Part shown: positions 2,868 to 61,078 of the stretch, piece by piece
Numbering within the stretch: the stretch's first letter is position 1
Layout: every line of letters starts with the position of its first letter
From: Bdellovibrionales bacterium
GTDB lineage: Bacteria > Bdellovibrionota > Bdellovibrionia > Bdellovibrionales > JAGQZY01
DNA length: 64,000 bases
Direction of reading: 5' to 3'
NCBI GenBank assembly: GCA_041736155.1
Contig: JBGSUL010000035.1
Span: 2,100-66,099 of the forward strand
Program-made: the position numbers and the translations under genes
Notes under the pieces: generated by a model
The model's input: only the letters and a program-made list of their open reading frames with translations
The model's database searches: none
Told to the model about the DNA's origin: nothing

Positions 2868-2869
2868 AG

Positions 2870-5800
2870 TTAATTCCCCTCAGGTGCGTTTAAGACATCT
2901 TTTAATAAATTCAATTGTGGGGTGATGGTCCCACTAAAATAATAGTTTGTGTTTTTGTTCATATCCGTAACAAATCCACTGAATTTTTCATAAATGAGAG
3001 AACTAATCAGATGTTCACTCGGATGCGCCACCGTCGAAATAGCTGGATCTCCCACAGTAAACTGTCTATCTGTGCGATATTTAAATTTAAATGGCGTAAC
3101 CTCCCTGGTCTTCACCTCTTGCAAGAACTCCTTGTTCAGCTCGAAGTAGTTGTTCAACCATGGTCTATAGTTGTTCACAAAAATATCTTCCAGCTCGGGA
3201 GGAAAGGGAAAGATAAACGTTGAGCCTTTTAAGTTCTGATTAGATGTTACATATTCGACCAGCACTGGCACAAACCAAGTGTTTTCGGCAACCGTAACCT
3301 CTTCATCCGAAAAGATACGTCTGTAGACCAGATCGTAATAAGAATACAACCTGTGCTCTTTTTGCTTTTTGATAAGTTTCTCATAATTATTTTCGCCATA
3401 TTTGGTAACATTCCCCAAATAATTGAGAACAATTTCATCGCGTTCATCAATATTCATAAGATGAATAAACTTTTCATAATGATCTATCACTTCTTTAGCG
3501 CTGACTTTGCGGCAATCATTTGCAAATTGCTCATCAGAAGGATCTAGTGCTTCACAATTGACTTCATTATTAATGGATATTTTGTTCAATTTATATAAGC
3601 TGACCAAAATATTTCCTTTTTCTTCAATCGTCTTGGTCTCCACTGCTGTTTTAGCCCACGGAACTTGGCTAGCAAATGTTCTCACACCAGAAGCTACGAA
3701 TTGTGCACGTGCGTTTGCTTTTTGTGCAGGACTCCAAGTGCTCACGCCTGACCAATTAAAGTTGACGCTCACTTCGCCGTTTTCTTTATAAATCTCCTCA
3801 GTCTCCATGTTGCTCACTGGAAAAATTTCGTATTGACCAGGGAAAATCTCATTTAAATAGCTCTTTAACCGCGCCAGGGTATCCAGTTTGAAGGTCGTCA
3901 CACGTCCCACTTCGAATCGTGTGTACCCTTTTCGCTCTCTGTATGCCTGAGGAAACATAGGGTCTGTGGAGGCCACCATAAATTGATCACGTACGACATT
4001 CAATTGTGCACGAACGGCCTCAGATGAAGATATGTTCTGCAATACATCTAACTCATTGATAGACGGATCAGCTTCTTGTTCGATACGTAATGGACCGAGA
4101 ACCTGCTCTCTTTGCGAACTCATATAGATTGTTACGACATCATATACTTTATCGAACAATTCGCCCCAGTACTGGGCTTCACGAAATATAAGAGCCTGTC
4201 GAATATCGCGGTCCCGATTGGCAAAGTCCCACTCACAGCCATTGATGGCATCATGCATACCAAAGAATGTTTCTGAGTATTCAGCCTTCAATCTTTTAAA
4301 ATCTTGGAACTGCTCTTCGATGATGCCTGCAATTTCATCTGCAGTGCCAGTCTCTTTGCTATATTGACGATAGATTTCCAAAAGTATCTTTGCCATAATG
4401 TTTTTCTTCTGAAAATCGGCTTTTAAGTTTTTAAGCGCAGACGTTACAGATGAACTGTAAGTACTACTCACCAACGATCCCGTTTTTAATGGGCGACTTG
4501 CTGTTGCGTCATAAACACTGGAGTCTAAATCTAAAAAAGAGATTTGATTTTTAGCTTGCGTTCTTGGCTTCATCAATAAAATCAACTGCTCTTGCCAATG
4601 GAATTTCTCACCCATACTCTGCTGCATTTCGGAATGAATGCGAACTTCCTGAGCCTGAAGTTGACGTTCTTCACGACAAGTCTGTTGCAGACTATCAACG
4701 ACGTTTGAGTAATTTTCACGCACGCTTTGCAAACTAGTTGTGGCAGTTTCTAAACTATTCTCTGTCTCAAGAACCAGCCGCTTAACTACGACCTTGAAAA
4801 ATTCTTCTATAGAAAACTTCAAAAGAGGCTTTTTATTTGTTGAGTAAGTACTAAATATTTCTGTCATCAACGCATAATAAAATGTGTAGAGAACCTGCGT
4901 GGTGTTTAAAGCATTTCCATCATGACCAAAATTGAAAAGGGGCTTAAACCCACCACCAAAAAATGTCTTCATGACGGTTAAACTATCAATCGTAAACTCA
5001 CCAAAGAATGTTTGAATTTTATCATTCATTTCCTGTGAAGCAAAAATGTGCACCAGAGAATACATACTTGGATAGGTGACAAGATATTTAATATTTTTTC
5101 CCAAAGCCTCAACATTCGAAGTGATTTGATCCACTTTCTGCTTATTTGCGGGAATATTTTTATTGACCACGCGATTAGCAAAACTTTGTAAAGTTTTAGA
5201 GCGATCAATTGTTTTTCCCCACGCTTTGCGAATCTCCGCTGCCTCTTTTTGTGCTTCTGTCATAAGCTCAATGATTTTCGTATCGGTGCTTTCGCCGTAA
5301 AAACGATTCATTCGAGTATTTGTATAGACAATATTGTTTACCACTTGGAGTTTGATCAAGGACGTGATCGCATCCATAAGTCTATTTTGGTCCTTGCCTG
5401 TGCTCTGCCAAAAAGCAGCCGCATCGTCGATATTATAATGCTCGTAGTATATCTGATGAACTAAGAAAAAGTATTCATCCGCGGGAAATTCGACATCTGC
5501 ACCCATACTGGTAAGGATGGCTTTGCTCTCTTGACCAAAAAGTTCTATGCGTTCACCAACGGCCGTGGTCACACTTTGGTAAACTTCTTGCTGCACATCA
5601 GTCAAACGTGCGATTTCTTCAGAAGCCTTCCACGTTTCATCAGCGTTTTGAAAGCGAGTCTTCCACTCGCCGCGAATATTTTCTTTTTGAAAAGACACAC
5701 CCTGCTCATAGTCAGTGCCAACGCGATAGTAGAGACTCTCGACGGCCTCGTGGAGTTCCTTTGATAACTGACGTGGTTTTATCGATGGAATAGGCGTGCC

Positions 5801-6766
5801 CGCCGGACCAGGCACTGTGGTTTCAACAGGTAAAAGGCTCACCTCTTGTGCATAAATAAGATTTTGAGCCGCTAGGTGCAAAAGCTCGGTCATCGCCGGA
5901 CTTTGTGGGCTGTCTTCGTTCCGTGATAAGAGCCATGGATTTACAGTGCGAATAAGATCAATGTATCTCTCGGACGAATTAGCCAAGTTTTCGTCCATAT
6001 TGATTTTAAGGACATTGGCAAATAAATTGGCGTCCTGTGACAATCTTCGTTGGCTGATGGTGCGAGATTTGTCTTGCGAAAGACTCGCCGCCAATCTTTC
6101 TAGAAGCATAAAGCGTAAGTTTTCGTCCAAACGACGGTTGGCTAAATCAAATGCCGCATAAACTAGACGTAATTTTTCTTCTTCTTGTGATTCCTGGTCA
6201 TGAAGGATTCGTACAATGCGTACAATGTTATTGCTGTCTGCTCCACGATAGAAACTAATAAACGAACATGTGCCTCGCAAATCTTCATCGCAATCCCAAA
6301 GAATCTGACTTTTCATTCGTGGCAATAACGTTTTGAGCATCACATGATTTGGATCTTCCGTGTACATAAGGAGAACCGCTTGATCGAACAAAACCACCAA
6401 GCGAGGAATCAGCTGAATTCCCGTTGCTGTCTCAAGGTATCTGTGGTCGGGATCTAATAAATAATCCACGTTCAGCACAACATCTAAAAGAGGTGTTATC
6501 ACCTGAGCATAGAGAAGAGCTGTGTTGATAGAGCCTTTTTCTTTTGCAAGTTGCTCGATAACAACAGGTTCCACTTGTTGCAACAGCTTTTCGAGTCGAC
6601 TGACTTCGCTCAAGTTAAAAGGAACGACGCCTTGTCCTTGTTGATTCGTAGTCGCTACACCATCTGGCAGGGCTCTTTTTCTTGTCGATTCTTGCGAATT
6701 ACAAAAACTCAAGGAGAAAGCCAGAGCTACAAGAAGTGATATTTTATTAAGATTTAATCTCATCAT
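2870..6766 (-). CDS. Giant secreted or lipidated protein (1298 aa), no recognisable catalytic motif
   Basis: N-terminus MMRLNLNKISLLVALAFSLSFC/NSQ is a signal peptide with a non-canonical lipobox (Phe at -1). Long predicted-helical, coiled-coil-like stretches. 9-nt gap to the upstream metzincin gene. Shares collinear motifs with the 1-1966 product. Confidence 0.8.
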   Translation of the reverse strand: MMRLNLNKISLLVALAFSLSFCNSQESTRKRALPDGVATTNQQGQGVVPFNLSEVSRLEKLLQQVEPVVIEQLAKEKGSINTALLYAQVITPLLDVVLNVDYLLDPDHRYLETATGIQLIPRLVVLFDQAVLLMYTEDPNHVMLKTLLPRMKSQILWDCDEDLRGTCSFISFYRGADSNNIVRIVRILHDQESQEEEKLRLVYAAFDLANRRLDENLRFMLLERLAASLSQDKSRTISQRRLSQDANLFANVLKINMDENLANSSERYIDLIRTVNPWLLSRNEDSPQSPAMTELLHLAAQNLIYAQEVSLLPVETTVPGPAGTPIPSIKPRQLSKELHEAVESLYYRVGTDYEQGVSFQKENIRGEWKTRFQNADETWKASEEIARLTDVQQEVYQSVTTAVGERIELFGQESKAILTSMGADVEFPADEYFFLVHQIYYEHYNIDDAAAFWQSTGKDQNRLMDAITSLIKLQVVNNIVYTNTRMNRFYGESTDTKIIELMTEAQKEAAEIRKAWGKTIDRSKTLQSFANRVVNKNIPANKQKVDQITSNVEALGKNIKYLVTYPSMYSLVHIFASQEMNDKIQTFFGEFTIDSLTVMKTFFGGGFKPLFNFGHDGNALNTTQVLYTFYYALMTEIFSTYSTNKKPLLKFSIEEFFKVVVKRLVLETENSLETATTSLQSVRENYSNVVDSLQQTCREERQLQAQEVRIHSEMQQSMGEKFHWQEQLILLMKPRTQAKNQISFLDLDSSVYDATASRPLKTGSLVSSTYSSSVTSALKNLKADFQKKNIMAKILLEIYRQYSKETGTADEIAGIIEEQFQDFKRLKAEYSETFFGMHDAINGCEWDFANRDRDIRQALIFREAQYWGELFDKVYDVVTIYMSSQREQVLGPLRIEQEADPSINELDVLQNISSSEAVRAQLNVVRDQFMVASTDPMFPQAYRERKGYTRFEVGRVTTFKLDTLARLKSYLNEIFPGQYEIFPVSNMETEEIYKENGEVSVNFNWSGVSTWSPAQKANARAQFVASGVRTFASQVPWAKTAVETKTIEEKGNILVSLYKLNKISINNEVNCEALDPSDEQFANDCRKVSAKEVIDHYEKFIHLMNIDERDEIVLNYLGNVTKYGENNYEKLIKKQKEHRLYSYYDLVYRRIFSDEEVTVAENTWFVPVLVEYVTSNQNLKGSTFIFPFPPELEDIFVNNYRPWLNNYFELNKEFLQEVKTREVTPFKFKYRTDRQFTVGDPAISTVAHPSEHLISSLIYEKFSGFVTDMNKNTNYYFSGTITPQLNLLKDVLNAPEGN

Positions 6767-6775
6767 ATATTATCC

Positions 6776-9700
6776 TTACTTGTTTATGTACTCGTACACC
6801 TGAGGTAAAATCCAACCATTCAACGAGAGCGCTGTCGAACTGATCAAACCAATACCTTTGGTCGAAGCATCGCAGCCATTCTGCGCAGGGATTAAACCTT
6901 CGCGCGTTTGGTAAAAGTCGAAAGCTGCATCTACGCTTTTTTCAAAGTTAATCTGCGCATCACCATCGACGTTAATATTGGGATCAATCTGGAATCCTTG
7001 AAAGTCTGGATTGCTAGCATTAAAATAGCTAGCAAGGCCCGTGACTCCACCAATACACTTTTCTAATTCTTGATTGGTTAAGCTGGAAATCGCATTTTTA
7101 ATGGTGAATCCCTCGAGAGGATCATCATATGACGTTTTATCATAGGTCACTTCTAGGGCCCAGATATACGAAGAGTCCTGACTTAAAAAACGTAATTTCG
7201 TCAGCGGCATGATTAGCTGATTCTCGTTACCACGAATAATCACCTTCCGATTCCGCAGAATATACGCATCTGACAAGTCGATGAGTTCACGTTTTGCAAG
7301 ATTGTAAAGTTTGGGAGAAAAAGTGAACATCTTATTTTGTGCCTCACCATTCTTAGGAACGGCTTTTAACAAAATCGCTACGATATCTACATTAAAACTC
7401 GTTTGTCCTTTAAGATCTTCAATGTAATCACTATCAAAACCACGAATCTGACCGTCATTGCTCAACTGGAAAGTGCGTCGCAAGAAATACGATAAATACA
7501 GGTTGGCAATACTCATGGTTGCTGAGTCCTGTAGAATAGTTCCGCCAAATCCCATGTTGGTTTTAATGGCCGTACCCATGACATCCGTAAACTCTTCAGG
7601 ATAGAGAGCGTAGTAACCCGTTTTTCCAGTATTAGGGTCAGAAAATCTGGGCTTTCCTATTCTCCACCAGCCATATTCCATGGTCGAAGAGGTGTTGGTA
7701 AAGACATCTAGCGCGGCAATTTTTAAATAGAGAAGACCCAATTGATCATAACGCCCAAAAATACGCGAATAATCATACGTCGCATTTCCACCGCGCAAAC
7801 CCGTCGGTAAAATAGCATCGTCGTAATTCATCAAGGCGTGGTCTGGTCCTTTCAAGCTCAGCAATACTTTTGCCACATCTAAAGATTTTCTTGTCGCACG
7901 GCAGAGCTTTTGCACTTCCGTAAAAGCCACTCCCTTTTCATAAAGAGTGTTTTCTAAATCGCGAAAACCCTGTTCATCAAGCTCAAGGATTTCGCGACTG
8001 CCAACAACATTTTTGTAAGTTTGCAATAGTGATGCGGCATCAGAAGCTGCTTGTATCCCACGACGCGATGTCGTGCGAGCCACTCCGGGTGTGACTTCTA
8101 AGGTCAGTCGAGCAAAATCCAAATCCCAACCTTGGGGAGCTTCTTGTGGATCGACACAAGCTCTCGAAAATCGCAGAAGCGCTTTTTCATCTTTCTTAAG
8201 TCGATTAAAAACGTCCAGGTAAACTTCATTGGTCGCAATTTGATAACGAAGTTCATCGTAAAACGTACGATTCTTATTCATCAAACTATAGGTTTGAACC
8301 CAGAGTAAATAATTGGCCCAATTCGAGTTACCGCCAGTGGCCGTAGTAAAGGAATTCATGCGCGAAACAAAAGACTCCGTATACTCTTTAAAGCCCTCAT
8401 TCACATTCGTGAAGGCGTCGTAACCGCGATCCCAACGCTGACAGTAGGGACTTGTTCCCACCCACGCGTCCATATCGGAACACTGAGGTAGATAGGTTGT
8501 TGTGTACTCACGCCCATCGTCGCCCGTGCGTTTTCCAGGAATTGTTCCATCTTTGTAAATTTCAAAAAACGTAAACTTTTCGTCACCGGGGATGTACGTA
8601 GCAAACTGCTGTTTGTATAAATAAGTGAGGGTGAGCTCATCCTGTGCTTGCATTTTGACTTTGTCATAAGGCAAAGCGACTTCCGTATGACCACTTTGGT
8701 AGTCCATGATACTCGAGTAGTTTTGCATGAGCTTCGCTTCTTCAGCGAGATAATTGTAAACAGAGTCTGGCACAGTTCCGCGTACAGGTAGACGATTGCC
8801 TTCGAATTGGTGACCTAATCCAACGCAATGACCCCATTCGTGGAGCATGACGTTTTTAATCATCGACTTAGCTGCCTCTTGTTTTTCAATGGAGTTCAGA
8901 CCCGCCGTTGCTTCTTGCATGGCAAAATAATGGTTTTCGAGACGATTTTCCATATCGTATGCGATACCCATTTTAGAATTAAACTCATCTGCCAAGCGCT
9001 GGTTATCTTGGGGACCCATAATGCCCGTATTAGCAAAATTCCTTTGCTCTGTTTCACCATCTGAGAAAACGGGATCCACACCAAAACGTGAAGCATTCAA
9101 AATTTTGGCGATATGGTCTTCTTCTGTCAGAATTTCTGTTTTGAATTCTTCAAGTAAGTCCGTATTCACATAACCAGGATAAGCATCACGGAAAGTCACA
9201 AAGTCTTTTGAGGCTTGAACTTCTACGATAGATGCTACGAAAGCGTCTACGGCTTCACGCAACTCTGTTTCGCGAGCCGAAATATCTTCCTCACTATCTT
9301 GTCGATCTCTCGACGGTGGCGCTAAACGTTGTTGCAATTCTTGGATTGCACCATTGATGTGATTATCGAAGAAAGATCTGTCGGAGAGTTGCGCAAAACT
9401 GGGGTGTGACTGGATTGATTTAAACCCTGGAGACCACGCAGCCAAATTTAACTGTCCCTTAATATCAAAGTAGTAAGGATTGTGTTTTACCGAGTCCAAA
9501 CCTTGAAACAAAGATTCTGTATTGCGGATAATTGCGTCCGCCACAGATTCACTGTCACGGTTGACGATATAGTCAATCAAACCACCCCACACAATGGTAC
9601 CTGCCCAGAGGATTTCACCGGTAGTTATGTCGGCATTCGCAAGACCGATACCGAGAGGAGCGCGCATAGAAAGAGCCGGGTCATCGACCCATGTGATGCT

Positions 9701-10783
9701 TGGACAACGTAGATCGTAGTCATATTTCATCTTGCGAGGAGATACGACAAACGCTTTTTGTCCGGGAGCCACAGCCTTGATATTCACCATGGCTTTGTTC
9801 ATTTCTTCGAGTACATCGACGCCAATTTGACGATAATTGCGATAATCCTCTGGGAAACTATTCAAGCACACTTCTATGGGTTTTTGTAAATCCCAGTGGG
9901 CGGCATAGTTCACCTCGTTAAATCCATTGGGTTTATTTCCAAGGATATGAAGTATGTTCATATACTGAGTTGTGCTCTGTTGATTGTATCGCGTCTTTAC
10001 AAAACCAGGCGTTCCTTTGAATTCTAAAAAGTTAAAACGCATTTCGTGTTGATTGAGAGACCCAAACCAACTCGATAGCAACGTTCCGTTAAATGCTAAA
10101 AAATTCGCGTCTGGTTTGACTTCGACTTCGATTTCATAAACATCGGTCAGCATATTTCCGCCTGCGGCTTGTGCTACCGCATCAGCAAAGCTATCAGGCC
10201 CTGGAGATTTATTGCTGTAAAATCGAATTCCTTTTAAGTTGATGTCCATGATCGGACTCAACTCCCAATTTTTACGATCCATTACTTTTTTGTAAACGTT
10301 CAATTCACGCCCCTTAGAGTCCACATCTCGCTCGTAGAAGTAATGCGCGGTGATAGGTAGAGTGAAAATCAGCGGCCACAATTTGGTGTCGTTGGGATAA
10401 TCCTGATCGATTTCTCGAGCTTCGAGATTTGTGCCATCGTGACTGATCATAAATTTCATATTGCAGTGACGAGAGTCATACGGTGTCGCCGTCAATCCCA
10501 AAGCATTTTTCCAACGTCCCGCCTGTGAAACAGATGCCCAGCCACAGAGCCAGCGTTTATCGGCGATGGTGACTTCGTTCGTGGCTTGACTGATGTCGAT
10601 CCCAAAGAAAACCTTGCGGATGGAAAGCGTTCCGTTCTGTACGATGGACATTGTTCGTGGGTTTTCGAGACCAGGCGAAGGATTGAGCGCCTCGGGTGTC
10701 GTATAGGTACACGAGCTAAGGAAAACCCCAAGGAGAAGAAGGTGAAAATTCAATACTACATTACGACCTACAAACTTTTGCAT
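6776..10783 (-). CDS. Giant lipoprotein zinc metalloprotease (1335 aa), metzincin-type
   Basis: Signal peptide plus lipobox (..LLLLGVFLSSC, Cys25). HEWGHCVGLGH (HExxHxxGxxH) is encoded at 8810-8842, and SSIMDY (Met-turn-like) at about 8699-8713. Upstream segments (IEVCLNSFPEDYRNY..VLEEMNKAM, ITWVDDP..ADITTGEILWAG) resemble, from memory, the DUF5117/DUF4953 zinc-dependent metalloprotease family. Confidence 0.8.
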   Translation of the reverse strand: MQKFVGRNVVLNFHLLLLGVFLSSCTYTTPEALNPSPGLENPRTMSIVQNGTLSIRKVFFGIDISQATNEVTIADKRWLCGWASVSQAGRWKNALGLTATPYDSRHCNMKFMISHDGTNLEAREIDQDYPNDTKLWPLIFTLPITAHYFYERDVDSKGRELNVYKKVMDRKNWELSPIMDINLKGIRFYSNKSPGPDSFADAVAQAAGGNMLTDVYEIEVEVKPDANFLAFNGTLLSSWFGSLNQHEMRFNFLEFKGTPGFVKTRYNQQSTTQYMNILHILGNKPNGFNEVNYAAHWDLQKPIEVCLNSFPEDYRNYRQIGVDVLEEMNKAMVNIKAVAPGQKAFVVSPRKMKYDYDLRCPSITWVDDPALSMRAPLGIGLANADITTGEILWAGTIVWGGLIDYIVNRDSESVADAIIRNTESLFQGLDSVKHNPYYFDIKGQLNLAAWSPGFKSIQSHPSFAQLSDRSFFDNHINGAIQELQQRLAPPSRDRQDSEEDISARETELREAVDAFVASIVEVQASKDFVTFRDAYPGYVNTDLLEEFKTEILTEEDHIAKILNASRFGVDPVFSDGETEQRNFANTGIMGPQDNQRLADEFNSKMGIAYDMENRLENHYFAMQEATAGLNSIEKQEAAKSMIKNVMLHEWGHCVGLGHQFEGNRLPVRGTVPDSVYNYLAEEAKLMQNYSSIMDYQSGHTEVALPYDKVKMQAQDELTLTYLYKQQFATYIPGDEKFTFFEIYKDGTIPGKRTGDDGREYTTTYLPQCSDMDAWVGTSPYCQRWDRGYDAFTNVNEGFKEYTESFVSRMNSFTTATGGNSNWANYLLWVQTYSLMNKNRTFYDELRYQIATNEVYLDVFNRLKKDEKALLRFSRACVDPQEAPQGWDLDFARLTLEVTPGVARTTSRRGIQAASDAASLLQTYKNVVGSREILELDEQGFRDLENTLYEKGVAFTEVQKLCRATRKSLDVAKVLLSLKGPDHALMNYDDAILPTGLRGGNATYDYSRIFGRYDQLGLLYLKIAALDVFTNTSSTMEYGWWRIGKPRFSDPNTGKTGYYALYPEEFTDVMGTAIKTNMGFGGTILQDSATMSIANLYLSYFLRRTFQLSNDGQIRGFDSDYIEDLKGQTSFNVDIVAILLKAVPKNGEAQNKMFTFSPKLYNLAKRELIDLSDAYILRNRKVIIRGNENQLIMPLTKLRFLSQDSSYIWALEVTYDKTSYDDPLEGFTIKNAISSLTNQELEKCIGGVTGLASYFNASNPDFQGFQIDPNINVDGDAQINFEKSVDAAFDFYQTREGLIPAQNGCDASTKGIGLISSTALSLNGWILPQVYEYINK

Positions 10784-10877
10784 TCTTGATCCTTTGCGTT
10801 TGTTCTTGTCTTAAAACTTATTGAATTATCCGTAAGGTAGGACATTTGACTTGTGACTTTTGCCGAAGTTCCCAAGC

Positions 10878-10946
10878 TTCTAAAACACCCAATTCTTTAA
10901 AAAACCCATAACCCCAATTTTGTTCCAGGCTTCTTAAAAAACACCC
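10878..10946. promoter_or_regulatory. Three direct copies of TTCT(T)(T)AAAA(AA)(CA)CCC in the promoter region of the giant operon
   Basis: Read directly from the plus strand: cTTCTAAAACACCC (10878-10890), aTTCTTTAAAAAACCC (10892-10907), cTTCTTAAAAAACACCC (10930-10946). They lie 95-165 nt upstream of the 10783 start in a 355-nt intergenic region. Confidence 0.45.
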
Positions 10947-11065
10947 TATGACAACCCAACCTAGGTGCTAATATATAAGGCATTTTGCAAATTTTATTAA
11001 GACGTGATTTGAATTGATGAAATGATTATACGGTTGGTGCCTTTGTATTCACTCACCTTGCGTTA

Positions 11066-11098
11066 TAAAAATAAAAAAACGGCTCTATTCAAGAGCCG
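11066..11098 (-). terminator. Rho-independent terminator after the 156-aa gene
   Basis: The minus strand reads CGGCTCT-tgaat-AGAGCCG followed by TTTTTTTATTTTT. This is a perfect 7-bp GC-rich stem plus a U-run, 40 nt after the stop at 11139. Confidence 0.85.
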
Positions 11099-11138
11099 AT
11101 CTTGTTGAGAATAAAATCTGATTAGCTTAATGATTTCG

Positions 11139-11609
11139 CTATCTTGACATCTTATAGAAGACATCCTGATAAGCCACTTCACCTGTCTCGCTATGATCGT
11201 AGACTGTAATGCCTAAATATTGTTCACCTATCTCGATGGCATCTTTTGGCTTCTGAATACCAATGATCTCCACCACTTTTTGGTTCATTCCCTGCTCATC
11301 ATTCATAACAAAGAAGAGTTTTCGCGAGAAACTCGAACAAAGAATATCAATGTCTTTGCCCGTGGGCTTACCATTAAAAGGGCTGATCTCGGTGATGGTA
11401 ACCAGGTACGGACACGCTAAGTCATAGGTGGTTAGCTGCAACTTGATTTCAAAAGCTCTTTGCGGACTGTTGAGATTTTTGCTCACCCACAATCCCTGGA
11501 GGTCTTTGATAAATACCTCTCTCTGAATGACTTCTGGCCACGGAACTTCTGGTCCGGCAAAAATCATTGGCGCGGTCATGAACATGAATATGAATACGAA
11601 CGTTTTCAT
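11139..11609 (-). CDS. Small secreted protein (156 aa), unknown function
   Basis: Signal peptide MKTFVFIFMFMTAPMIFA/GPE. Its ATG overlaps the regulator stop (ATGA). Followed by a strong terminator. Confidence 0.7.
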   Translation of the reverse strand: MKTFVFIFMFMTAPMIFAGPEVPWPEVIQREVFIKDLQGLWVSKNLNSPQRAFEIKLQLTTYDLACPYLVTITEISPFNGKPTGKDIDILCSSFSRKLFFVMNDEQGMNQKVVEIIGIQKPKDAIEIGEQYLGITVYDHSETGEVAYQDVFYKMSR

Positions 11610-31327: not shown

Positions 31328-31405
31328 GAGGTCCTTCTGCCTGAGGTCCTTCGCATTCGCTCAGGGAACTACCTTATTAGGATTCCTGAGCGGAACGAAG
31401 GATCT
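31328..31405. repeat. REP-like palindromic element (two inverted copies of the GATCCTTCG..CGCTCAGGA unit)
   Basis: Left arm GGTCCTTCGCATTCGCTCAGGGA (31345-31367). Right arm AGGATTCCTGAGCGGAACGAAGGATCT (31379-31405) is its approximate reverse complement. GAGGTCCTT is duplicated at 31328 and 31343. It lies between the ctpA stop and the next gene. Confidence 0.7.
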
Positions 31406-54212: not shown

Positions 54213-54288
<76 letters not shown>

Positions 54289-54379: not shown

Positions 54380-54985
54380 ATGCGATGGGCCTCAACTCAA
54401 AATTGGATTCGTATGGGAAAAAGCCGTTTAGAAGCATTCAGTGATGGCGTTCTTGCGATCATCATTACCATTATGGTTTTGGAACTCAAACCTCCTCACG
54501 ATACAACACTCGAAAGTCTCTACCCGCTTCTTCCCGTTTTCTTGGCTTATGTTTTAAGTTTTATTTATGTCGGTATTTACTGGAACAATCACCACCATAT
54601 GCTCCACACCGTTACAAAAGTAACGGGAGGAATTTTATGGGCCAATCTGCATTTACTCTTTTGGCTTTCTCTTGTTCCGTTTGCCACAGCCTGGGCTGGC
54701 GAAAATCATTTTGCGCCTTTACCTGTCGCCGTCTATGGTTTTGTACTTCTTATGGCAGCGATCTCGTATTGGATTTTGCAGAATGCGATTATTTGTTCTC
54801 ATGGAGATAAGTCTCCACTTAAAGTGGCGGTTGGTAACGATCTTAAGGGAAAACTTTCTCCCGTCTTTTACCTTCTTGCTATCGCTTCGTCATTTTTTTC
54901 TTCAGCCCTCGCCATGGGCTTTCTGATTTTTGTTGCAGGGATCTGGCTTATCCCCGATCGGCGTATTGAAAAACACTTACGTTAG
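54380..54985 (+). CDS. TMEM175/DUF1211-family membrane protein (putative K+ channel)
   Basis: Hallmark RLEAFSDGVLAIIITIMVLE (RxxxFSD) at the N-terminus of six predicted TM helices. The start may be 54413 (MGKSRLEAF..). Confidence 0.75.
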   Translation: MRWASTQNWIRMGKSRLEAFSDGVLAIIITIMVLELKPPHDTTLESLYPLLPVFLAYVLSFIYVGIYWNNHHHMLHTVTKVTGGILWANLHLLFWLSLVPFATAWAGENHFAPLPVAVYGFVLLMAAISYWILQNAIICSHGDKSPLKVAVGNDLKGKLSPVFYLLAIASSFFSSALAMGFLIFVAGIWLIPDRRIEKHLR

Positions 54986-55008
54986 ATCCTTCGCTCCGCT
55001 CAGGATCT
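54984..55008. repeat. Single REP-like unit AGATCCTTCGCTCCGCTCAGGATCT
   Basis: It fills the 26-nt gap between convergent stops (54985 and 55012). Its termini are self-complementary (AGATCCT/AGGATCT). Confidence 0.7.
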
Positions 55009-55011
55009 AAT

Positions 55012-56028
55012 TTACTTAAGTGGTTTGCAGACTTCGTCTTTGACTCCCGCAACACGCTCGGTGGTTTGCGGGTGACTGGATAAATAATTAAATAATTTAT
55101 TTTTTGGATTCGTGGACATTTTGTACGCTTTTTCGAGATCGAGAAGAGCTTGTTTAAAGCACGACGAAGAAAGACCCGTTCTCTTCAGCGAAGCATAGGC
55201 CCCCTGATCTGCCTGTTGCTCAAATTTACGCGAATACTTTGCGCTGACTAAAAAAACACCCATGTTGAGAATTGTGTCTGTGGTTCCCACCATATCGCCG
55301 ATAATAAAAAAGGAAACCCCCGACAACACAGAGGACGAAAAAATGGTCGACAATACATGTCGGTTCTTTAAGTGGGCCTCTTCGTGGAAGACAACAGATA
55401 AAATTTCTTCATCTTGGCTCATGGCTTCTACCAACTCATCGCCGATAATAATGGTGTTTCCAGCAAGCGCAAAGGCATTGGGTAATTCTAGCTCTCTAAA
55501 CAAAATTTTGATTCGAGGGTCAATGTGCTCGCGGAGGTAGTCCGTCAGCTGTTGCTGTCGTTCTGGTGAAAGCTTACTTGGGGAAAAATATTTGCTATCG
55601 AGTTGCTCCACCAGGATCTTATCAAAAGAGTTCGCCCATTCTTGGGGCACACGAGCGGCCAAAGATCCACTGAGCTTGGGTAAAACCACTTGCACTAGGA
55701 AAACAAGCCCAAGCACTACCGATATTAAACTTAAAACCACGCCCAGGCTATGAGATTCGAGCCAATAAACGAACCGTGATCCCGACGTAAACAGATTTCT
55801 GATTTGTTCAAAATGATAATATCCACTCTCGACTTCGAGACGACCTCCATCGACAAGTTCAATAATCAATGGTCCGTTTTTTGTTGGAATCATCGCACGA
55901 TATTGACCTTGCGCAAGTGTCCGCTCGTCACCGTCCACAATGACAATTGAATGATTGAGAACACGCAACTTTACGTCGCGTGCTTGAGAAGTTTTTCCAT
56001 CAAGAAAAGTGGCTCTTAACTCGATCAC
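55012..56028 (-). CDS. M48-family zinc metallopeptidase with N-terminal soluble domain and TM segment
   Basis: VVFHEEAHLKNRH contains HEXXH. A TM (LGVVLSLISVVLGLVFLVQVVL) separates the N-terminal domain from the peptidase. The GTG start overlaps the upstream stop (GTGA). Confidence 0.8.
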   Translation of the reverse strand: MIELRATFLDGKTSQARDVKLRVLNHSIVIVDGDERTLAQGQYRAMIPTKNGPLIIELVDGGRLEVESGYYHFEQIRNLFTSGSRFVYWLESHSLGVVLSLISVVLGLVFLVQVVLPKLSGSLAARVPQEWANSFDKILVEQLDSKYFSPSKLSPERQQQLTDYLREHIDPRIKILFRELELPNAFALAGNTIIIGDELVEAMSQDEEILSVVFHEEAHLKNRHVLSTIFSSSVLSGVSFFIIGDMVGTTDTILNMGVFLVSAKYSRKFEQQADQGAYASLKRTGLSSSCFKQALLDLEKAYKMSTNPKNKLFNYLSSHPQTTERVAGVKDEVCKPLK

Positions 56029-57212
56029 AGGCCAATCTCAAAATCTAAATCAAAGATTCCGAGGATCTCCTCGGCGATGGGAGAGGCTGAGCTTGCCGCT
56101 GTCTCGACAAACTGATCGAGATTGTCGACACTCAAATATTTAGACTCAGTTAAAAGCTTTCGATAACGCATTTGTGCCCATGGAATCATAAGACCAAAAC
56201 TGAAAATCATGACAAAAAGATTGGTGAATACGACCCATACAAAATCTTTTTTCGATAAGACGATTCTACTCTGGTAGGGTCCCGCATGCAGACGACCCCA
56301 AATATATGTATTCGTTAAGTAAGGAAAAAGTACGCTCAGATAAAATATTAAACCGTAAAATGTAAAAATAAGCGGAACTATGAGAATTAGCATTATGGTT
56401 CCAGTAATCCGTATCAACCCCAAACAAGCTACCACGGTCAGCGCTATCAGAACCATCCAACCTATAGCTCTTAGGTACGGCATGAATACATGGCTGAAAA
56501 CTGCCGAAGAGTCAGTGTGAATTGAAACTCTCGTCCCGCCATAAGATAAATTATTATAAATGTAACTATAGCTGGCGTTAAGTATTTTGCGACCCATGAT
56601 CAACATATAGATGATGTTCACTACCGCGATACTCATAATCGTTATCATCGTCGGGTGGGACCAAATTGCGAGAGCGGCCGCTTTATCTTTTCCCGTCGTC
56701 ACCGGTAATTGGCCAAATATTTTTAAACATAAAATGGAGATAAACGACGTAACAAACAAAAAGGCGCCATAGCGAAACCATAGTCGATAAGCATCGTCGA
56801 GTTTTCCATGAAAACCAAAACGTACATTTCTGTAACTTGTGTATTTGGTCTTAAATCGCATGGATTTAACAAACAAAAATGGACCGACAAGAACCATTAA
56901 AAAGAATCCCAGAATCCCCACGGTCCAGTTGATTTGCCCACCCCAAAAATACAAACCAAAAATCACCAATGCAATAATCCGCCCTATCAATATGGGAAGT
57001 GGCTGAGCGTGATAATCCATCCGACTTCCTTTAAATTCGGTAGCTTGGTTTATGTACTTCATTTTTCGAATTTTAGCCCATGGACTGTAAACTCCGAGTG
57101 TCACCAATGTAAGGAACAAATTGACGATCCAAATACTGAAATAATCACCCGAACGACCATGAAACTGTAGGCGAATGAATTCGGGTTGTGATGGGGGCAC
57201 CTCTAAATGCAT
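56025..57212 (-). CDS. YjgN/DUF898-family polytopic membrane protein
   Basis: FHGRSGDYFSIWIVNLFLTLVTLGVYSPWAKIRKMKY matches my recollection of the DUF898 N-terminal signature, and there are multiple TM helices. I prefer the ATG at 57212 (GGAG 8 nt upstream); the track start is 57287. Confidence 0.7.
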   Translation of the reverse strand: MHLEVPPSQPEFIRLQFHGRSGDYFSIWIVNLFLTLVTLGVYSPWAKIRKMKYINQATEFKGSRMDYHAQPLPILIGRIIALVIFGLYFWGGQINWTVGILGFFLMVLVGPFLFVKSMRFKTKYTSYRNVRFGFHGKLDDAYRLWFRYGAFLFVTSFISILCLKIFGQLPVTTGKDKAAALAIWSHPTMITIMSIAVVNIIYMLIMGRKILNASYSYIYNNLSYGGTRVSIHTDSSAVFSHVFMPYLRAIGWMVLIALTVVACLGLIRITGTIMLILIVPLIFTFYGLIFYLSVLFPYLTNTYIWGRLHAGPYQSRIVLSKKDFVWVVFTNLFVMIFSFGLMIPWAQMRYRKLLTESKYLSVDNLDQFVETAASSASPIAEEILGIFDLDFEIGL

Positions 57213-57388
57213 AGGCTTTTCTCCTGTTAAAAGGGAAGAAATTTGCATGACCTTAGGAAAAGTGCAATGTTCTAGAGAACTTTTCATGTATTTTTTTCGT
57301 CAAAATAGTCAGTCGCTTGCTACTCGTGTTTTTTTTTCAATTTTTTTAGAAAACCTCCTCAAAAATGCGAAAACTGCTATAAATCTCT

Positions 57389-58570
57389 ATGCTTTTGCGC
57401 TGGTTCCTGTTCTTTACTTTCTCCTCCTGTTGTTGTTTTGCCGAAGCCGCACTCCGCTGCGATACTTTTTTTCCTCAAAATCTTATTAGCCCCTCTCTTG
57501 TTGACGACTCCGTTTCCTCTGAAGAAATCCAACAGATGATCGCGGAAAGCCGCAAGAGTCTTCGGGAGCAATCATTTCGTGTCTCTTATCAAGAATTTTT
57601 CGCACGTGTGCTCAATCAGCCCGCAGAGGCTTACGAATCCTTGAGTCCTCAAGAGAGCCTCGCTTATCTTACTTTGTTCGCGCGCTGGCGTCTGTTGCCC
57701 TCAGACAAATGGAGTGCTTTCTTTTTGCAGATCGTTGAGCGACAAATCTTTGAGTGGTCGAATGAAAGCTTTCTCACCTTTGCTCTGCAGAGAAAATTAA
57801 CCCCGTTGGTCTTTCCGGAATCTTTTGTGGCGTCTTACTACCAACGTTTGCGCGAAATTTTCCCGAGTCTAAATGTAACCACTCAGCTTGAAACCTTGTC
57901 GGCTGAACTTTATCACGACGGAGAGCTTAAACATTCGTTGAGTACTGAAGACTTGTCTTTTTTTATCAGAGTACTCACCGAAAATTTAAAAAACTTGCCT
58001 GAAAGCTTGCCAGGAAATTTACCTGCAAACTTACATATTAAACCTGTAAAAGAAATGTACCGTGGCCTGCTTTTTTTAAAGAACGATGTTCGTACTTCGC
58101 TCACCTACGAAATTTCACTCCTGATAGAGCAACTCGAAAGAAAACTGCAATATTATAATATATCTCTAGCGGACGGAGGTAAAAGTGGTGACACTCGCCA
58201 TCGTTCGTCCCCTGACGACTCTCGCTATCAGATCTTGGAGATCGACCTACAATTACTCTTTAGAGGTTCCGAGCTCATCACCGAGTATTCAGATGCCCAA
58301 CTACCGGGTTTTTATGATGCTGTAGATATTCTCGTTGTAGACGCTCGACTTGTTGTGGAGTGGGATGGTGGTCATCACTATTTTCGACCTCTCCTCATGG
58401 ATGGTTCGATTCTCAATGAGCAAGACGATCTGGTATTACGTCCCTTAGACCGCGCAAGGGATCGATTGCTGCGAACGCAAGGATATCGAATATTGCGGAT
58501 TTCTCCTCCCCTCGCAAATCAGCTTCATAATTTAGATATTGAGACTTTGATTAACGAGCAGAATCCGTAA
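57389..58570 (+). CDS. Protein with hydrophobic N-terminus, helical FAST-like repeats and a C-terminal RAP/DUF559-like PD-(D/E)XK domain
   Basis: C-terminus DAVDILVVDARLVVEWDGGHHYF..RPLDRARDRLLRTQGYRILRIS fits the D..(E)xDG..H...R..L...GY.vlR core of RAP/DUF559 endonuclease-like domains. The middle has repeats such as LSPQESLAYLTLFARWRLL and WSNESFLTFALQRKL. Confidence 0.55.
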   Translation: MLLRWFLFFTFSSCCCFAEAALRCDTFFPQNLISPSLVDDSVSSEEIQQMIAESRKSLREQSFRVSYQEFFARVLNQPAEAYESLSPQESLAYLTLFARWRLLPSDKWSAFFLQIVERQIFEWSNESFLTFALQRKLTPLVFPESFVASYYQRLREIFPSLNVTTQLETLSAELYHDGELKHSLSTEDLSFFIRVLTENLKNLPESLPGNLPANLHIKPVKEMYRGLLFLKNDVRTSLTYEISLLIEQLERKLQYYNISLADGGKSGDTRHRSSPDDSRYQILEIDLQLLFRGSELITEYSDAQLPGFYDAVDILVVDARLVVEWDGGHHYFRPLLMDGSILNEQDDLVLRPLDRARDRLLRTQGYRILRISPPLANQLHNLDIETLINEQNP

Positions 58571-58574
58571 GCTG

Positions 58575-58699
58575 AGATCCTTTGCCTCGCTCAGGATGAC
58601 GGAGGGAGACAGGTCCTTCTCTCTGCTCTGAACGACGCAGGCCTAGCCTGCGCTTCGCTCAAAAGTCTAACAAAGATTCCTGAGAGCAGCGAAGGATCT
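58575..58699. repeat. Composite cluster of REP-like units (two good inverted copies flanking two degenerate ones)
   Basis: AGATCCTTTGCCTCGCTCAGGAT (58575-58597). Degenerate AGGTCCTTCTCTCTGCTCTGAACG (58611-58634). CGCTTCGCTCAAAAG (58651-58665). Inverted AGATTCCTGAGAGCAGCGAAGGATCT (58674-58699). Together they fill the convergent gap 58571-58702. Confidence 0.65.
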
Positions 58700-58702
58700 C
58701 TC

Positions 58703-59488
58703 TTACTCTCCGAAGATCTTTTCGCAAATGAAATGTCTGCTAGGAAATTTAACGATTTCTGCGGTGGCGATACGTTGTGTTTTTTCATGCGTAGCGACCT
58801 CCGCCACTGGAAGCGCCGGGCGTTTGTACGCACCATAAAGCATTTCTTCACGATCCTGCGCTAACTGAGCCAACTCCTCCAGAGGAATCGATGCTGTGCT
58901 TTGTTTTTCAAAGCCAAAAGTTTGAGAACGTGTATCTTTTTGAATGTTCTCTGAGCCTCTATCTTGTACCCATGGCCCCCAGAAAATATATTTTCTTCTG
59001 TAATACTTTCGCACGAAAACATAATAAAGCTTCTCACCGTCGCGAATCAGACGTCGTTCTTCCCTACGCATGTGACGCTCGTTCTGATCCATTGTCGTTT
59101 CGGTTATGACAAGTACTCCCGGCTCTCCGTGATATTCGATGCTGCTCTTGTAACTACCATAACCGCCCATGTAGCGAACATCCCCTCGCAAAGACTCCTG
59201 TTCTTCTTTCGTTTCATGAAGTGCCAGAGGATACAAAAAATCTTGCCATATCATGACTGGGTTTCCACCCAGCTCCCATGCATGGAGAGTGTTCTCACTG
59301 AGAAACACGCTTATCACCTTTTCTCTTCCCTGTTCATCATGGGAAAAGTAGGTTCCTAAAAAGGGTTCGAGGATACTTTCGAGGTGAGCGTTAACTCCAG
59401 AATCTTTTGCAAAGACGACTGTGGGTGGAAGTAAAAAGAACACGACAAAGAACGCTCGCAAAATGTTTAATTTCTGATGAACTTGCAT
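58703..59488 (-). CDS. Secreted protein (261 aa), unknown
   Basis: The ATG at 59488 gives MQVHQKLNILRAFFVVFFLLPPTVVFA/KD, a signal peptide. The track start at 59575 adds 29 residues. Confidence 0.55.
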   Translation of the reverse strand: MQVHQKLNILRAFFVVFFLLPPTVVFAKDSGVNAHLESILEPFLGTYFSHDEQGREKVISVFLSENTLHAWELGGNPVMIWQDFLYPLALHETKEEQESLRGDVRYMGGYGSYKSSIEYHGEPGVLVITETTMDQNERHMRREERRLIRDGEKLYYVFVRKYYRRKYIFWGPWVQDRGSENIQKDTRSQTFGFEKQSTASIPLEELAQLAQDREEMLYGAYKRPALPVAEVATHEKTQRIATAEIVKFPSRHFICEKIFGE

Positions 59489-59594
59489 ACGACCACCGCT
59501 TTTGTTTGTGATCGGGAATATAGCTAGGTGTTTTGAGGACAGCGAGAAGTATGTGGGAACGAGTAAAGTTTTCATATTAAACGAGATACTTCGT

Positions 59595-60419
59595 TTAGCG
59601 GCATTGACGCCAAAGGAGGTGATACTGCATTTCGCCGTTGGGGGACGCGCCGATGGCCGCGTCGAGGGAATCGACGGTGCCCATCACATCTTCACCTTGC
59701 GCGTTGGTAACGGCAGCCGCCCGGGTTTCTATGCGTAGTTGTCCTGAACGTCCGCAAGGTGACCAAACGGGCTCTGTGGAAATGTCGGTCGATAAAGTGT
59801 ATTCGTCATCGAGAGGACCGCGAAAATCAAAGTGCCGGCGCACACGTCGACCAGCTTGTTTACCTGTTTGCGAATCGACAAACGAGTATAATGTAAAATA
59901 ACGAACGCGCGCATTGCGCGGAATCAAATTGTAACCACGATAATCTAATTTCACCACGGTAAACTGAACTCCCCGAGGCAATTCCAAAGGAACTTGTACC
60001 GTACAACTTTTCAAATCGCGTCGGTTACCGTAACTGCGTCCCGCTTGCACCACATAATTATCAAATAGAAGAGCGAGCGTTTTTTGATCCGGTGTGAGAC
60101 TCACGCCCACCGTTCCTTCGGGGCATCCACTGCCGCCCCATTGCGGTTTTTTAATCTGCAAACCTGGAACAAAAATCGATCCCGCATTTTTGGGTCTCTC
60201 TCCCCAACCGGGACGAAAAGGTTTCGCGCTTTCGTCGTTTTGCATTTGTGGCTCTGCGGATTCACCAGCATCGCCAATAACTGCGGCCCCCGGTGCTCCC
60301 ACAAAAGGAGCGCCAACAGCTGGCGCCCGCAAAGAATCGATAAAGTGAGGAGATCCTTTCCATTGAGCCTGACCTTCTTGGCTTAGCAACATCACAACAA
60401 CTAAAAATACAGACTTCAT
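59595..60419 (-). CDS. Secreted four-Cys protein, DUF4360-like, with Gly/Ala/Pro-rich N-terminal extension
   Basis: The ATG at 60419 (GGAGAG upstream) gives the signal peptide MKSVFLVVVMLLSQEGQA. Core GGSGCPEGTVG..KSC..KLDYRGY..VWSPCG..LLWRQC is paralogous to the next gene. Confidence 0.7.
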   Translation of the reverse strand: MKSVFLVVVMLLSQEGQAQWKGSPHFIDSLRAPAVGAPFVGAPGAAVIGDAGESAEPQMQNDESAKPFRPGWGERPKNAGSIFVPGLQIKKPQWGGSGCPEGTVGVSLTPDQKTLALLFDNYVVQAGRSYGNRRDLKSCTVQVPLELPRGVQFTVVKLDYRGYNLIPRNARVRYFTLYSFVDSQTGKQAGRRVRRHFDFRGPLDDEYTLSTDISTEPVWSPCGRSGQLRIETRAAAVTNAQGEDVMGTVDSLDAAIGASPNGEMQYHLLWRQCR

Positions 60420-60454
60420 GTGAGTTCTCTCCTCAAACAGTTTCGTTAGTAAGC

Positions 60455-61078
60455 TTAAATACACTTCCGCCATTGCAGCTGATAAATCATACCGGCAGCA
60501 ATGTCGGTACTGTCTACCGTTGCTAGAACGTCTTGGTTTTTAGAATTTGTTTTCGCCAACATCGAAGTATTGATGCGCAAATTCACGTCCTGACCACAAG
60601 CGGACCAAACGGCGGCAGAAAGAAGAAGTTGGTTCGACACTAAATAATCACGATCGACCGGCCCCATAAATGTGCGGGAGCCTTTAGGCCCTGTGCTGCT
60701 GCTGTTAAAACTTTTGAGAAAGTATTCCACAGAAAAACGCGCCATAGCACCCGCAGGTACATAAGTGTATCCACGATAATCCACTTTCAACACACTCACG
60801 CTATAACCCTGTGGAACATGAATCGGCACTGCCAAATTACAACTCTTGCGATCGAGGGCAACCCCTGCGCCTTTTCCCGCTTGCGCCATAAAGGCATCAA
60901 AAATAATACTCAGCACTTTGTTGTCAGGTGAGAGCGTCGCCCCGACAGTTCCTTGTGGACAGCCCGTTCCCCCATACGCTGGCTCACCCAAAGCAATATC
61001 ATCCGCTCTCGCGATCGTGCTCATTGCCATGCTCACGATACTCACTAAAGTAAATACTACGTTTCTCATTTGTCTCAT
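60455..61078 (-). CDS. Secreted four-Cys protein, DUF4360-like (207 aa)
   Basis: Signal peptide ..LVSIVSMAMSTIARA/DD. Core GGTGCPQGTVG..KSC..KVDYRGY..VWSACG..LQWRKC. RBS GAGGGGGA. Confidence 0.7.
   Translation of the reverse strand: MRQMRNVVFTLVSIVSMAMSTIARADDIALGEPAYGGTGCPQGTVGATLSPDNKVLSIIFDAFMAQAGKGAGVALDRKSCNLAVPIHVPQGYSVSVLKVDYRGYTYVPAGAMARFSVEYFLKSFNSSSTGPKGSRTFMGPVDRDYLVSNQLLLSAAVWSACGQDVNLRINTSMLAKTNSKNQDVLATVDSTDIAAGMIYQLQWRKCI

Follow-up and report, generated by a model that had tools for sequence, protein, structure and literature searches.

How a protein built like the RNA-processing factors of eukaryotic organelles comes to be encoded by a Bdellovibrionales bacterium, and what it may do there, is the question raised by one gene of contig JBGSUL010000035.1 (assembly GCA_041736155.1). 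The window, that is, the whole stretch of DNA that was analysed, comprises 64,000 nucleotides of this contig (positions 2,100 to 66,099 of the forward strand), and position 1 in the numbering used here is its first letter. Proteins that combine heptatricopeptide or octotricopeptide repeats (HPR, OPR) with a RAP domain, and those of the FASTK family, are regarded as eukaryotic organellar RNA-processing factors. A preliminary description, made from the sequence alone, assigned an architecture of this type and a signal-like N-terminus to the product of the gene at 57389-58570 (plus strand), and suggested that the gene had been acquired horizontally. The reading favoured here, with moderate confidence, is that the gene encodes an exported two-domain protein which targets nucleic acid, carries a nuclease domain and belongs to a rare family of Bdellovibrionales type.

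The gene and the layout of its product

The locus is a single open reading frame (ORF) with an ATG start, 393 amino acids (aa) and a stop codon, and the ORF listing with its translations agrees exactly with the sequence features that had been quoted from it. No in-frame start lies further upstream, and the start is supported because homologues can be aligned from their first residues, the near-invariant Cys24 included. The features of the gene are the following:

57389-58570, plus strand: complete gene for a putatively exported helical-repeat protein with a Vsr/DUF559/RAP-like nuclease fold (from the ORF, homologues and dN/dS)
57389-57448, plus strand: signal-peptide-like N-terminus, residues 1-20, MLLRWFLFFTFSSCCCFAEA, with heuristic cleavage after A20 (heuristic pattern that recurs in the family)
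57458-57460, plus strand: Cys24, near-invariant (92%) and the sole Cys of the predicted mature protein (family alignment)
57506-58174, plus strand: predicted alpha-solenoid of helical hairpins, residues 40-262, HPR/OPR-like, with a period of ~38 aa (domain model and fold search)
58175-58219, plus strand: low-confidence linker with a GGxSG loop, residues 263-277 (predicted local distance difference test, pLDDT, below 50 at 265-272)
58220-58567, plus strand: C-terminal alpha/beta domain, residues 278-393, of predicted Vsr/DUF559/RAP-type PD-(D/E)XK-like fold (DUF559 at 19.3 bits, fold matches)

A word-indexed search of 5.8 billion proteins returned 12 homologues (35-52% identity, all of ~337-387 aa), and when 1.84 billion cluster representatives were searched exhaustively with a profile, only 39 proteins were returned at E <= 1e-3. 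These sequences make up a genuine, though rare, family. Its four matches in GTDB species-representative genomes are all metagenome-assembled genomes (MAGs) named 'Bdellovibrionales bacterium'. A profile of 37 sequences retrieved no further relatives from the word-indexed database, the bridging member P0045, used as a query, added just three bacterial relatives, and the 64-kb window holds no paralogue of the gene. The pairwise ratio of nonsynonymous to synonymous substitution (dN/dS) among orthologues is 0.12-0.18; the gene is therefore under purifying selection and, therefore, functional.

The signal peptide was called by a simple scan for a hydrophobic core and suitable (-3,-1) residues, which is a rule of thumb. 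In line with the signal-like N-terminus of the preliminary description, a basic residue is followed by a hydrophobic core and by a site of AxA type after residue 20 (FAEA/ALRC). Nearly all of the 37 full-length relatives keep this pattern, the P0045/P0051 group among them: identity within the bacterial family falls to ~20% with both the signal and the Cys retained. The conserved Cys is located 3-6 residues past the heuristic cleavage site, and most members have no second Cys in the mature protein. The residue just before the conserved Cys varies across the family (Q, R, S, N, F, L or P), and a lipoprotein processed by signal peptidase II was rejected, as no [LVI][ASTVI][GAS]C lipobox is found at the conserved Cys. 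Export of the protein is a well-supported inference from this N-terminal pattern; even with an uncleaved anchor, most of the protein would be on the periplasmic side according to the positive-inside rule.

The full-length AlphaFold2 model, built on a 13-sequence alignment (pLDDT 83, predicted TM-score, pTM, 0.78), shows an N-terminal helix at residues 3-13 followed by disorder at 13-38, an all-helical region at residues 44-254 with a hairpin period of ~38 aa, and an alpha-beta-beta-beta-alpha-beta domain at residues 278-393. A solenoid-only model of residues 40-262, built on a 29-sequence alignment, reached a pLDDT of 94 and a pTM of 0.90. In the models, the helices pair as 87-99/106-122, 125-137/144-160, 163-174/186-202 and 217-228/232-254, and the solenoid holds the motifs LSPQE..LFARWRLLP and WSNESFLTFALQRKL. 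The helical repeats put forward in the preliminary description thus appear as ~38-aa hairpins in the models, but at the level of sequence they are marginal, with a single pair (84-122 versus 123-161) reaching an hhalign P of 0.0018 and the remaining pairs not significant. A GGxSG loop (GGKSG, residues 263-267, 58175-58189) separates the solenoid from the nuclease-like domain. Among the 13 closest members, its residues G263, G264, S266 and G267 vary little or not at all; in the 37-member alignment, G264 alone (89%) stays at or above 80%.

The best conserved part of the family is the C-terminal motif D..D / ExDG..H / R..L..GY..LRI. In the alignment of the 37 family members, D313 and D354 are conserved in 100%, E324, H330 and R351 in 97%, and D326 and R370 in 92%; other conserved residues of the domain are E299, D310 and D358. 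The D/ExDG..H...R..L..GY core that had been recognised in this region is therefore present, with D313, E324, D326 and H330 conserved in 92-100% of the members. An active or at least metal-binding site can be inferred because this Asp/Glu/Asp/His cluster is nearly invariant, and the solenoid would then be the substrate-binding module.

Relationship to DUF559, RAP and FASTK proteins

The Vsr, DUF559 and RAP domains have a common PD-(D/E)XK-like fold. The Pfam gathering cutoffs of the relevant profiles are 20.6 bits for DUF559 (PF04480), 24.2 for RAP (PF08373) and 27.4 for FAST_1 (PF06743). The sole Pfam match of the protein is DUF559, with 19.3 bits over residues 311-372. The expected DUF559 domain is thus missed narrowly in the protein itself but is recovered in several relatives (P0033 24.8, P0005 24.7, P0001 20.8 and P0019 20.7 bits) and in the family consensus (21.7-22.7 bits). 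Membership in RAP, FAST_1 or FAST_2, in contrast, could not be upheld by the searches with hidden Markov models. RAP gives no match at E <= 1 in the protein, and every family member misses its cutoff, the top score being that of P0038 (24.1 bits), followed by P0018 (21.3), P0012 (19.9) and P0014 (17.8); the family consensus scores 19.8 bits across positions 1-55 of the 58 of the profile. FAST_1 is absent from the protein and the core family (consensus 8.8 bits, E = 2), and is found below threshold in P0045 (18.5 bits, E 2e-3) and P0050 (21.5 bits, E 2e-4), which form a distant sister subfamily with the same signal, Cys and C-terminal domain (hhalign probability 95.7%). FAST_2 (PF08368) has no match in the protein, its relatives or the consensus, and neither Vsr (PF03852) nor any NCBIfam model matches the protein.

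Outside the family, RAP was called among the marginal matches in P0044 (42.9 bits), P0046 (34.2 bits) and, weakly, P0047; the nearest RAP-annotated match has an E of 5e-6 and spans the C-terminal domain only. P0044 itself is a single ORF of 1073 aa (GCA_016742295.1, JACVCA010000032.1, locus L008, 5063-8284) which joins an F-box and leucine-rich repeats to the Pfam RAP domain, a eukaryote-like combination. When the PDB was searched with the family profile, only 3HRL, an 'endonuclease-like protein' of the DUF559 family, was reached (E = 0.14), and the single sequence reached only a designed helical protein (E = 0.24). DUF559/Vsr-like proteins such as 3HRL and the protein studied here share the core vD..(l)vvE.DG..H...D..Rd..L...Gy.vlR. 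In the family, however, ~17 residues are inserted after the H and before the R..D..RD helix, as in RAP domains and unlike DUF559. By sequence, the C-terminal domain appears to sit between DUF559 and RAP, two related Vsr-like families.

The comparison of folds points in a more specific direction. When the full-length model was compared with the PDB by Foldseek, all nine matches at E <= 1e-3 came from alveolate mitoribosomes. According to Supplementary Data 2 of the study of the Toxoplasma gondii mitoribosome (PMC11742926), from which the identities of the 9I05 chains were taken, the helical-repeat, RAP domain-containing chains among them are mL138 (Xi, rank 1), mL147 (Xr, rank 4), mL141 (Xv, rank 7, and Xl, rank 8) and mL136 (Xg, rank 9). 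All five RAP-domain chains of 9I05 are therefore within the top nine (E 7e-6 to 1e-3), and their alignments extend over 374-434 columns, i.e., the full length. The helical-repeat chains without RAP, mL156 (XC), mL137 (Xh) and mL139 (Xj), rank below them, at 10, 14 and 16 (PMC11742926). The chains mL138, mL141, mL147 and mL136 (PDB 9I05, 9G6K) are similar in size to the protein studied here, at ~390-490 aa, and like it they have a solenoid of helical hairpins with a Vsr-like alpha/beta domain at its C-terminal end; the likeness reaches a query TM-score (TMq) of up to 0.51 with only 10-13% identity and no match at the level of sequence. These chains are eukaryotic, imported into the mitochondrion, and have a structural role there in which they bind fragmented rRNA, whereas the protein of the window is bacterial, has a Sec-type N-terminus and stays below the Pfam RAP cutoff.

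For the solenoid-only model, the top matches are T. gondii mL137, mL156, mL139 and mL138 together with mitoribosome chains of Polytomella and Chlamydomonas (TMq 0.55-0.64, best E 1.2e-2, none at or below 1e-3); organellar chains outrank designed repeats, TOG domains and 14-3-3 proteins, which is consistent, if weakly, with an HPR/OPR likeness of the modelled solenoid. In the viral library BFVD only the C-terminal domain found matches, of DUF559, Vsr and homing-endonuclease-like type over 118-163 columns, and these confirm the predicted fold of that domain. As in the HPR/OPR-RAP architecture, tandem two-helix repeats of ~37-38 aa are directly followed by a Vsr-like domain in the models. The best match of the predicted overall fold is with those RNA-binding proteins of eukaryotic mitochondria that carry a RAP domain, so that the FASTK/RAP-like architecture of the preliminary description holds as a fold. 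The fold search proposed at that time gave the DUF559/Vsr-type match of the C-terminal domain but not the human FASTKD4 crystal structure, which is absent from the top 50 PDB matches of the full-length model. The same logic of repeats followed by a Vsr-like domain is nevertheless seen in the FASTK family (FASTK and FASTKD1-5, with heptatricopeptide repeats, FAST_1, FAST_2, plus RAP), and the LFA.W.LLP motif of the protein resembles FAST_1-type repeats; FASTK proteins have a mitochondrial presequence where this protein has a Sec-type signal.

Several of these results would also suit an ordinary cytoplasmic DNA endonuclease of the DUF559/Vsr type, with a role in repair, restriction or a homing-like process, in which the helical N-domain would be lineage-specific and unrelated to HPR/RAP and the hydrophobic N-terminus incidental. 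DUF559 is the only Pfam match, with several relatives above its cutoff, three relatives have been named 'very-short-patch-repair endonuclease' by JGI, and the one solved structure reached by sequence is a DUF559 protein. Such an enzyme is nonetheless unlikely. The Vsr profile itself finds no match; the AxA-site N-terminus and the Cys are kept down to ~20% identity and are therefore not incidental; the full-length fold matches point specifically to RAP-containing helical-repeat proteins; the N-domain, with 39 representatives in 1.84 billion proteins, is rare and not a common bacterial module; and the gene has no defence-system or mobile-element context. Typical DUF559 proteins are cytoplasmic and have neither an alpha-solenoid nor a signal peptide, unlike the protein studied here. 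An anti-phage defence system was also rejected, as PADLOC gave no match for the protein or for three of its neighbours. The preliminary description had named a generic DUF559 hit, a non-repeat N-domain common in bacteria and the lack of a signal as the outcome that would speak against it; the N-domain is instead predicted to be a helical-repeat solenoid that is rare in bacteria, and a signal-like N-terminus is present.

Putative nuclease activity and its substrate

In the favoured reading, the protein would be exported via Sec and its signal peptide would probably be cleaved after Ala20, which leaves one Cys near the new N-terminus. Four to five HPR/OPR-like hairpins (residues ~40-262) would bind a nucleic acid, most likely RNA or DNA in single-stranded form, and the solenoid would present this substrate to the endonuclease domain of Vsr/DUF559/RAP type (residues 278-393), in which the acidic/His cluster of D313, E324, D326 and H330 is intact. 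Since the mature protein would be outside the cytoplasm, the substrate would be extracytoplasmic, and for an extracytoplasmic protein of Bdellovibrionales-type carriers the most economical candidate would be prey-derived or environmental nucleic acid, a choice of substrate that is speculation. A more specific proposal can be made only tentatively: Bdellovibrio-like predators would export the protein as an RNA/DNA endonuclease, selective for sequence or structure, that disables or dismantles the nucleic acids of the prey, and its repeat-plus-Vsr-like design would be the one with which eukaryotes process organellar RNA. The family, deeply diverged and vertically inherited in bacteria, would then also be a candidate prokaryotic relative of the HPR-RAP/FASTK proteins and not a copy borrowed from them.

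It is important to note that several points weigh against a nucleic-acid-targeting nuclease. The window copy is acidic (isoelectric point, pI, of 5.0 for the mature protein and 4.7 for the C-terminal domain), which is unusual for a general nucleic-acid binder; relatives reach a pI of 9.6. The proteins nearest to it in structure bind rRNA without catalysis, and RAP-domain proteins can be catalytically dead scaffolds, for instance FASTKD4 and the RAP proteins of the T. gondii ribosome. The fold matches of the solenoid taken separately are weak (E ~1e-2), internal sequence repeats are barely detectable, and export is read from a heuristic N-terminal pattern. Furthermore, no partner gene or operon points to a substrate, the neighbourhoods of the window and of the MAG clade differ, and the predatory lifestyle of the carrier organism is itself putative.

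Some of these points would be accounted for by a non-catalytic scaffold, exported or membrane-anchored, in which the RAP-like domain only binds or the solenoid makes protein-protein contacts. The proteins that it resembles most closely in fold bind rRNA in a structural role, the pI of the window copy is acidic, and the single conserved Cys suggests covalent dimerisation or tethering. In FASTKD4, the FAST_2 and RAP domains jointly build a Vsr-like domain in which the equivalent of Vsr His69 is Asn, and the protein has been reported to be inactive (PMC11879112). That His, missing in FASTKD4, is present in the target family, however, and D313, E324, D326 and H330, together with E299, D310, D354 and D358, are 84-100% conserved, which is more than a binding-only role needs; a mere scaffold therefore seems improbable. 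FASTKD5 is an active RNA endonuclease that cleaves RNA in vitro (PMC12242768).

Inheritance, genomic setting and significance

Orthologues of the gene are found in conserved synteny in four Bdellovibrionales MAGs and on a metagenome contig (L006; 51% identical, same order). In these loci, FKBP and RRM_1 genes are located upstream on the opposite strand, and a 155-aa gene and a ~519-aa gene downstream of the orthologue; locus L002 starts too near the target gene to show the upstream FKBP/RRM_1 pair. The composition of the gene (GC 0.446, GC at third codon positions, GC3, 0.438) is close to the means of the long ORFs of the window (0.448 and 0.459), and its codon-usage distance ranks 27th of 34, so that no compositional signal of horizontal gene transfer is seen in GC, GC3 or codon usage. 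The exhaustive and word-indexed searches returned no close eukaryotic relative by sequence beyond marginal matches to the C-terminal domain. A recent eukaryotic acquisition is unsupported because GC and codon usage are native and the orthologues stand in conserved synteny, and the claim that the gene is of eukaryotic type and horizontally acquired finds no support on these grounds and on that of the ~20%-identity depth of the bacterial family; an ancient transfer, in either direction, may have occurred. It is accordingly highly unlikely that a FASTK/RAP gene was taken over from a eukaryote recently and now provides an effector against a eukaryotic host: such an architecture is elsewhere typical of the organellar proteins of eukaryotes, the known bacterial repeat+RAP proteins occur in the eukaryote-associated Orientia and Ralstonia (PMC7729196) and horizontal transfer has been proposed for prokaryotic RAP domains (PMC8190603), but native composition, conserved synteny, deep divergence within bacterial lineages, the want of eukaryotic sequence relatives beyond those marginal matches, a Sec signal instead of a type III or type IV secretion context and the position of human FASTKD4 outside the top 50 fold matches all argue against it.

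The target is 52-74% identical between MAG-clade genomes whose RRM_1 protein is 95-100% identical. Its dN is ~2 times that of the two downstream neighbours and ~10 times that of FKBP, ratios that are rough with dS near saturation. It is thus a fast-evolving gene amid slowly evolving neighbours (loci L001, L003, L004 and L006, ~300-11400), and a rate higher than that of its syntenic neighbours fits an extracellular or interaction protein. In the same clade, the orthologue adjoins the divergently transcribed and nearly invariant RRM_1 RNA-binding protein and the FKBP.

In the window, a DUF898 and M48 peptidase pair is located upstream on the opposite strand, and an unannotated convergent ORF followed by two DUF4360 genes downstream. 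A toxin-immunity or operon partner was rejected, given that the window and the MAG clade alike have a convergent gene downstream and that their neighbours differ. The DUF898 membrane protein (E 9e-66) overlaps the M48 peptidase downstream of it, which has an N-terminal DUF7092, by 4 nt (55012-57287, minus strand), and both probably form a two-gene operon divergent from the target gene. The convergent ORF (58703-59575, minus strand) encodes 290 aa without a Pfam or PADLOC match; an internal Met (residue 30, MQVHQKLNILRAFFVVFFLLPPTVVFA/KD) resembles the true start, with a signal peptide. The DUF4360 paralogues lie in tandem at 59595-60473 and 60455-61078 (both minus strand; E 1.7e-38 and 1.8e-50) with a 19-nt overlap, and both have signal-like N-termini. 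The target, the ORF at 58703-59575 and the DUF4360 pair make up a small cluster rich in apparently exported proteins. The only gathering-level Rfam match of the window is a tRNA gene at 54213-54285 (plus strand, RF00005, 70.4 bits), and Rfam finds nothing near the target gene.

A further feature lies between the target gene and its convergent neighbour:

58574-58700, no strand assigned: structured intergenic element with inverted arms of 21-23 nt resembling repetitive extragenic palindromic (REP) sequences (from the inverted repeat, motif copies and minimum free energy)

Its 21-nt motif, GATCCTTCGCnnCGCTCAGGA, has four copies in the window (31384, 54985, 58576 and 58678) with at most one mismatch, where 0 are expected by chance. 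The inverted pair 58576-58596/58678-58698 bounds a 125-nt element directly downstream of the target gene, and the minimum free energy of 58574-58700 is -62.2 kcal/mol (z = -4.95). The gene had been said to be flanked by REP-like repeats, and this is correct for the downstream side but not for the upstream intergenic region (57288-57388), in which no repeat was found. A further inverted pair occurs near 31340-31405, and the motif at 54985-55005 belongs to a lone hairpin copy immediately 3' of the gene for the M48 peptidase. The orthologous loci have no counterpart of the 58574-58700 element, and a tie between it and the gene family was rejected for this reason.

Regarding known systems, no HPR proteins were found by Hillebrand et al. 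in the three bacterial genomes that they sampled (PMC6212722), and Hollin et al. reported that a few prokaryotic proteomes contain one or two candidate RAP proteins, for which they suggested horizontal transfer (PMC8190603). The bacterial repeat+RAP proteins on record are few and come from eukaryote-associated pathogens: Oberleitner et al. described OPR-like repeats with FAST-like and RAP domains in OtRAP of Orientia tsutsugamushi (KJV97331.1) and in the RipS/SKWP type III effectors (PMC7729196). The architecture is therefore not unprecedented in bacteria. OtRAP and RipS are set apart from the present protein as products of eukaryote-associated bacteria that presumably enter host cells by delivery. 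The RipS proteins are also very large; the present family, unlike OtRAP and RipS, is compact, bears a Sec signal and a conserved Cys, and occurs in environmental Bdellovibrionales-type MAGs. What appears to be new is the combination of a compact size (~390 aa), a conserved Sec-type signal with a single conserved Cys, vertical inheritance in environmental genomes of Bdellovibrionales type and a divergence that puts the family beyond the detection of the Pfam RAP and FAST profiles.

If the protein should prove to be an inactive periplasmic scaffold, its value would be mainly structural and evolutionary. If the favoured reading of an exported nucleic-acid-targeting nuclease is true, the family would offer a tractable model of how a helical-repeat array feeds a Vsr-like nuclease, a question raised for FASTKD5 and the RAP proteins, as well as evidence on how the RAP/FASTK architecture arose in evolution, and it might represent a new class of secreted nuclease in predatory bacteria.

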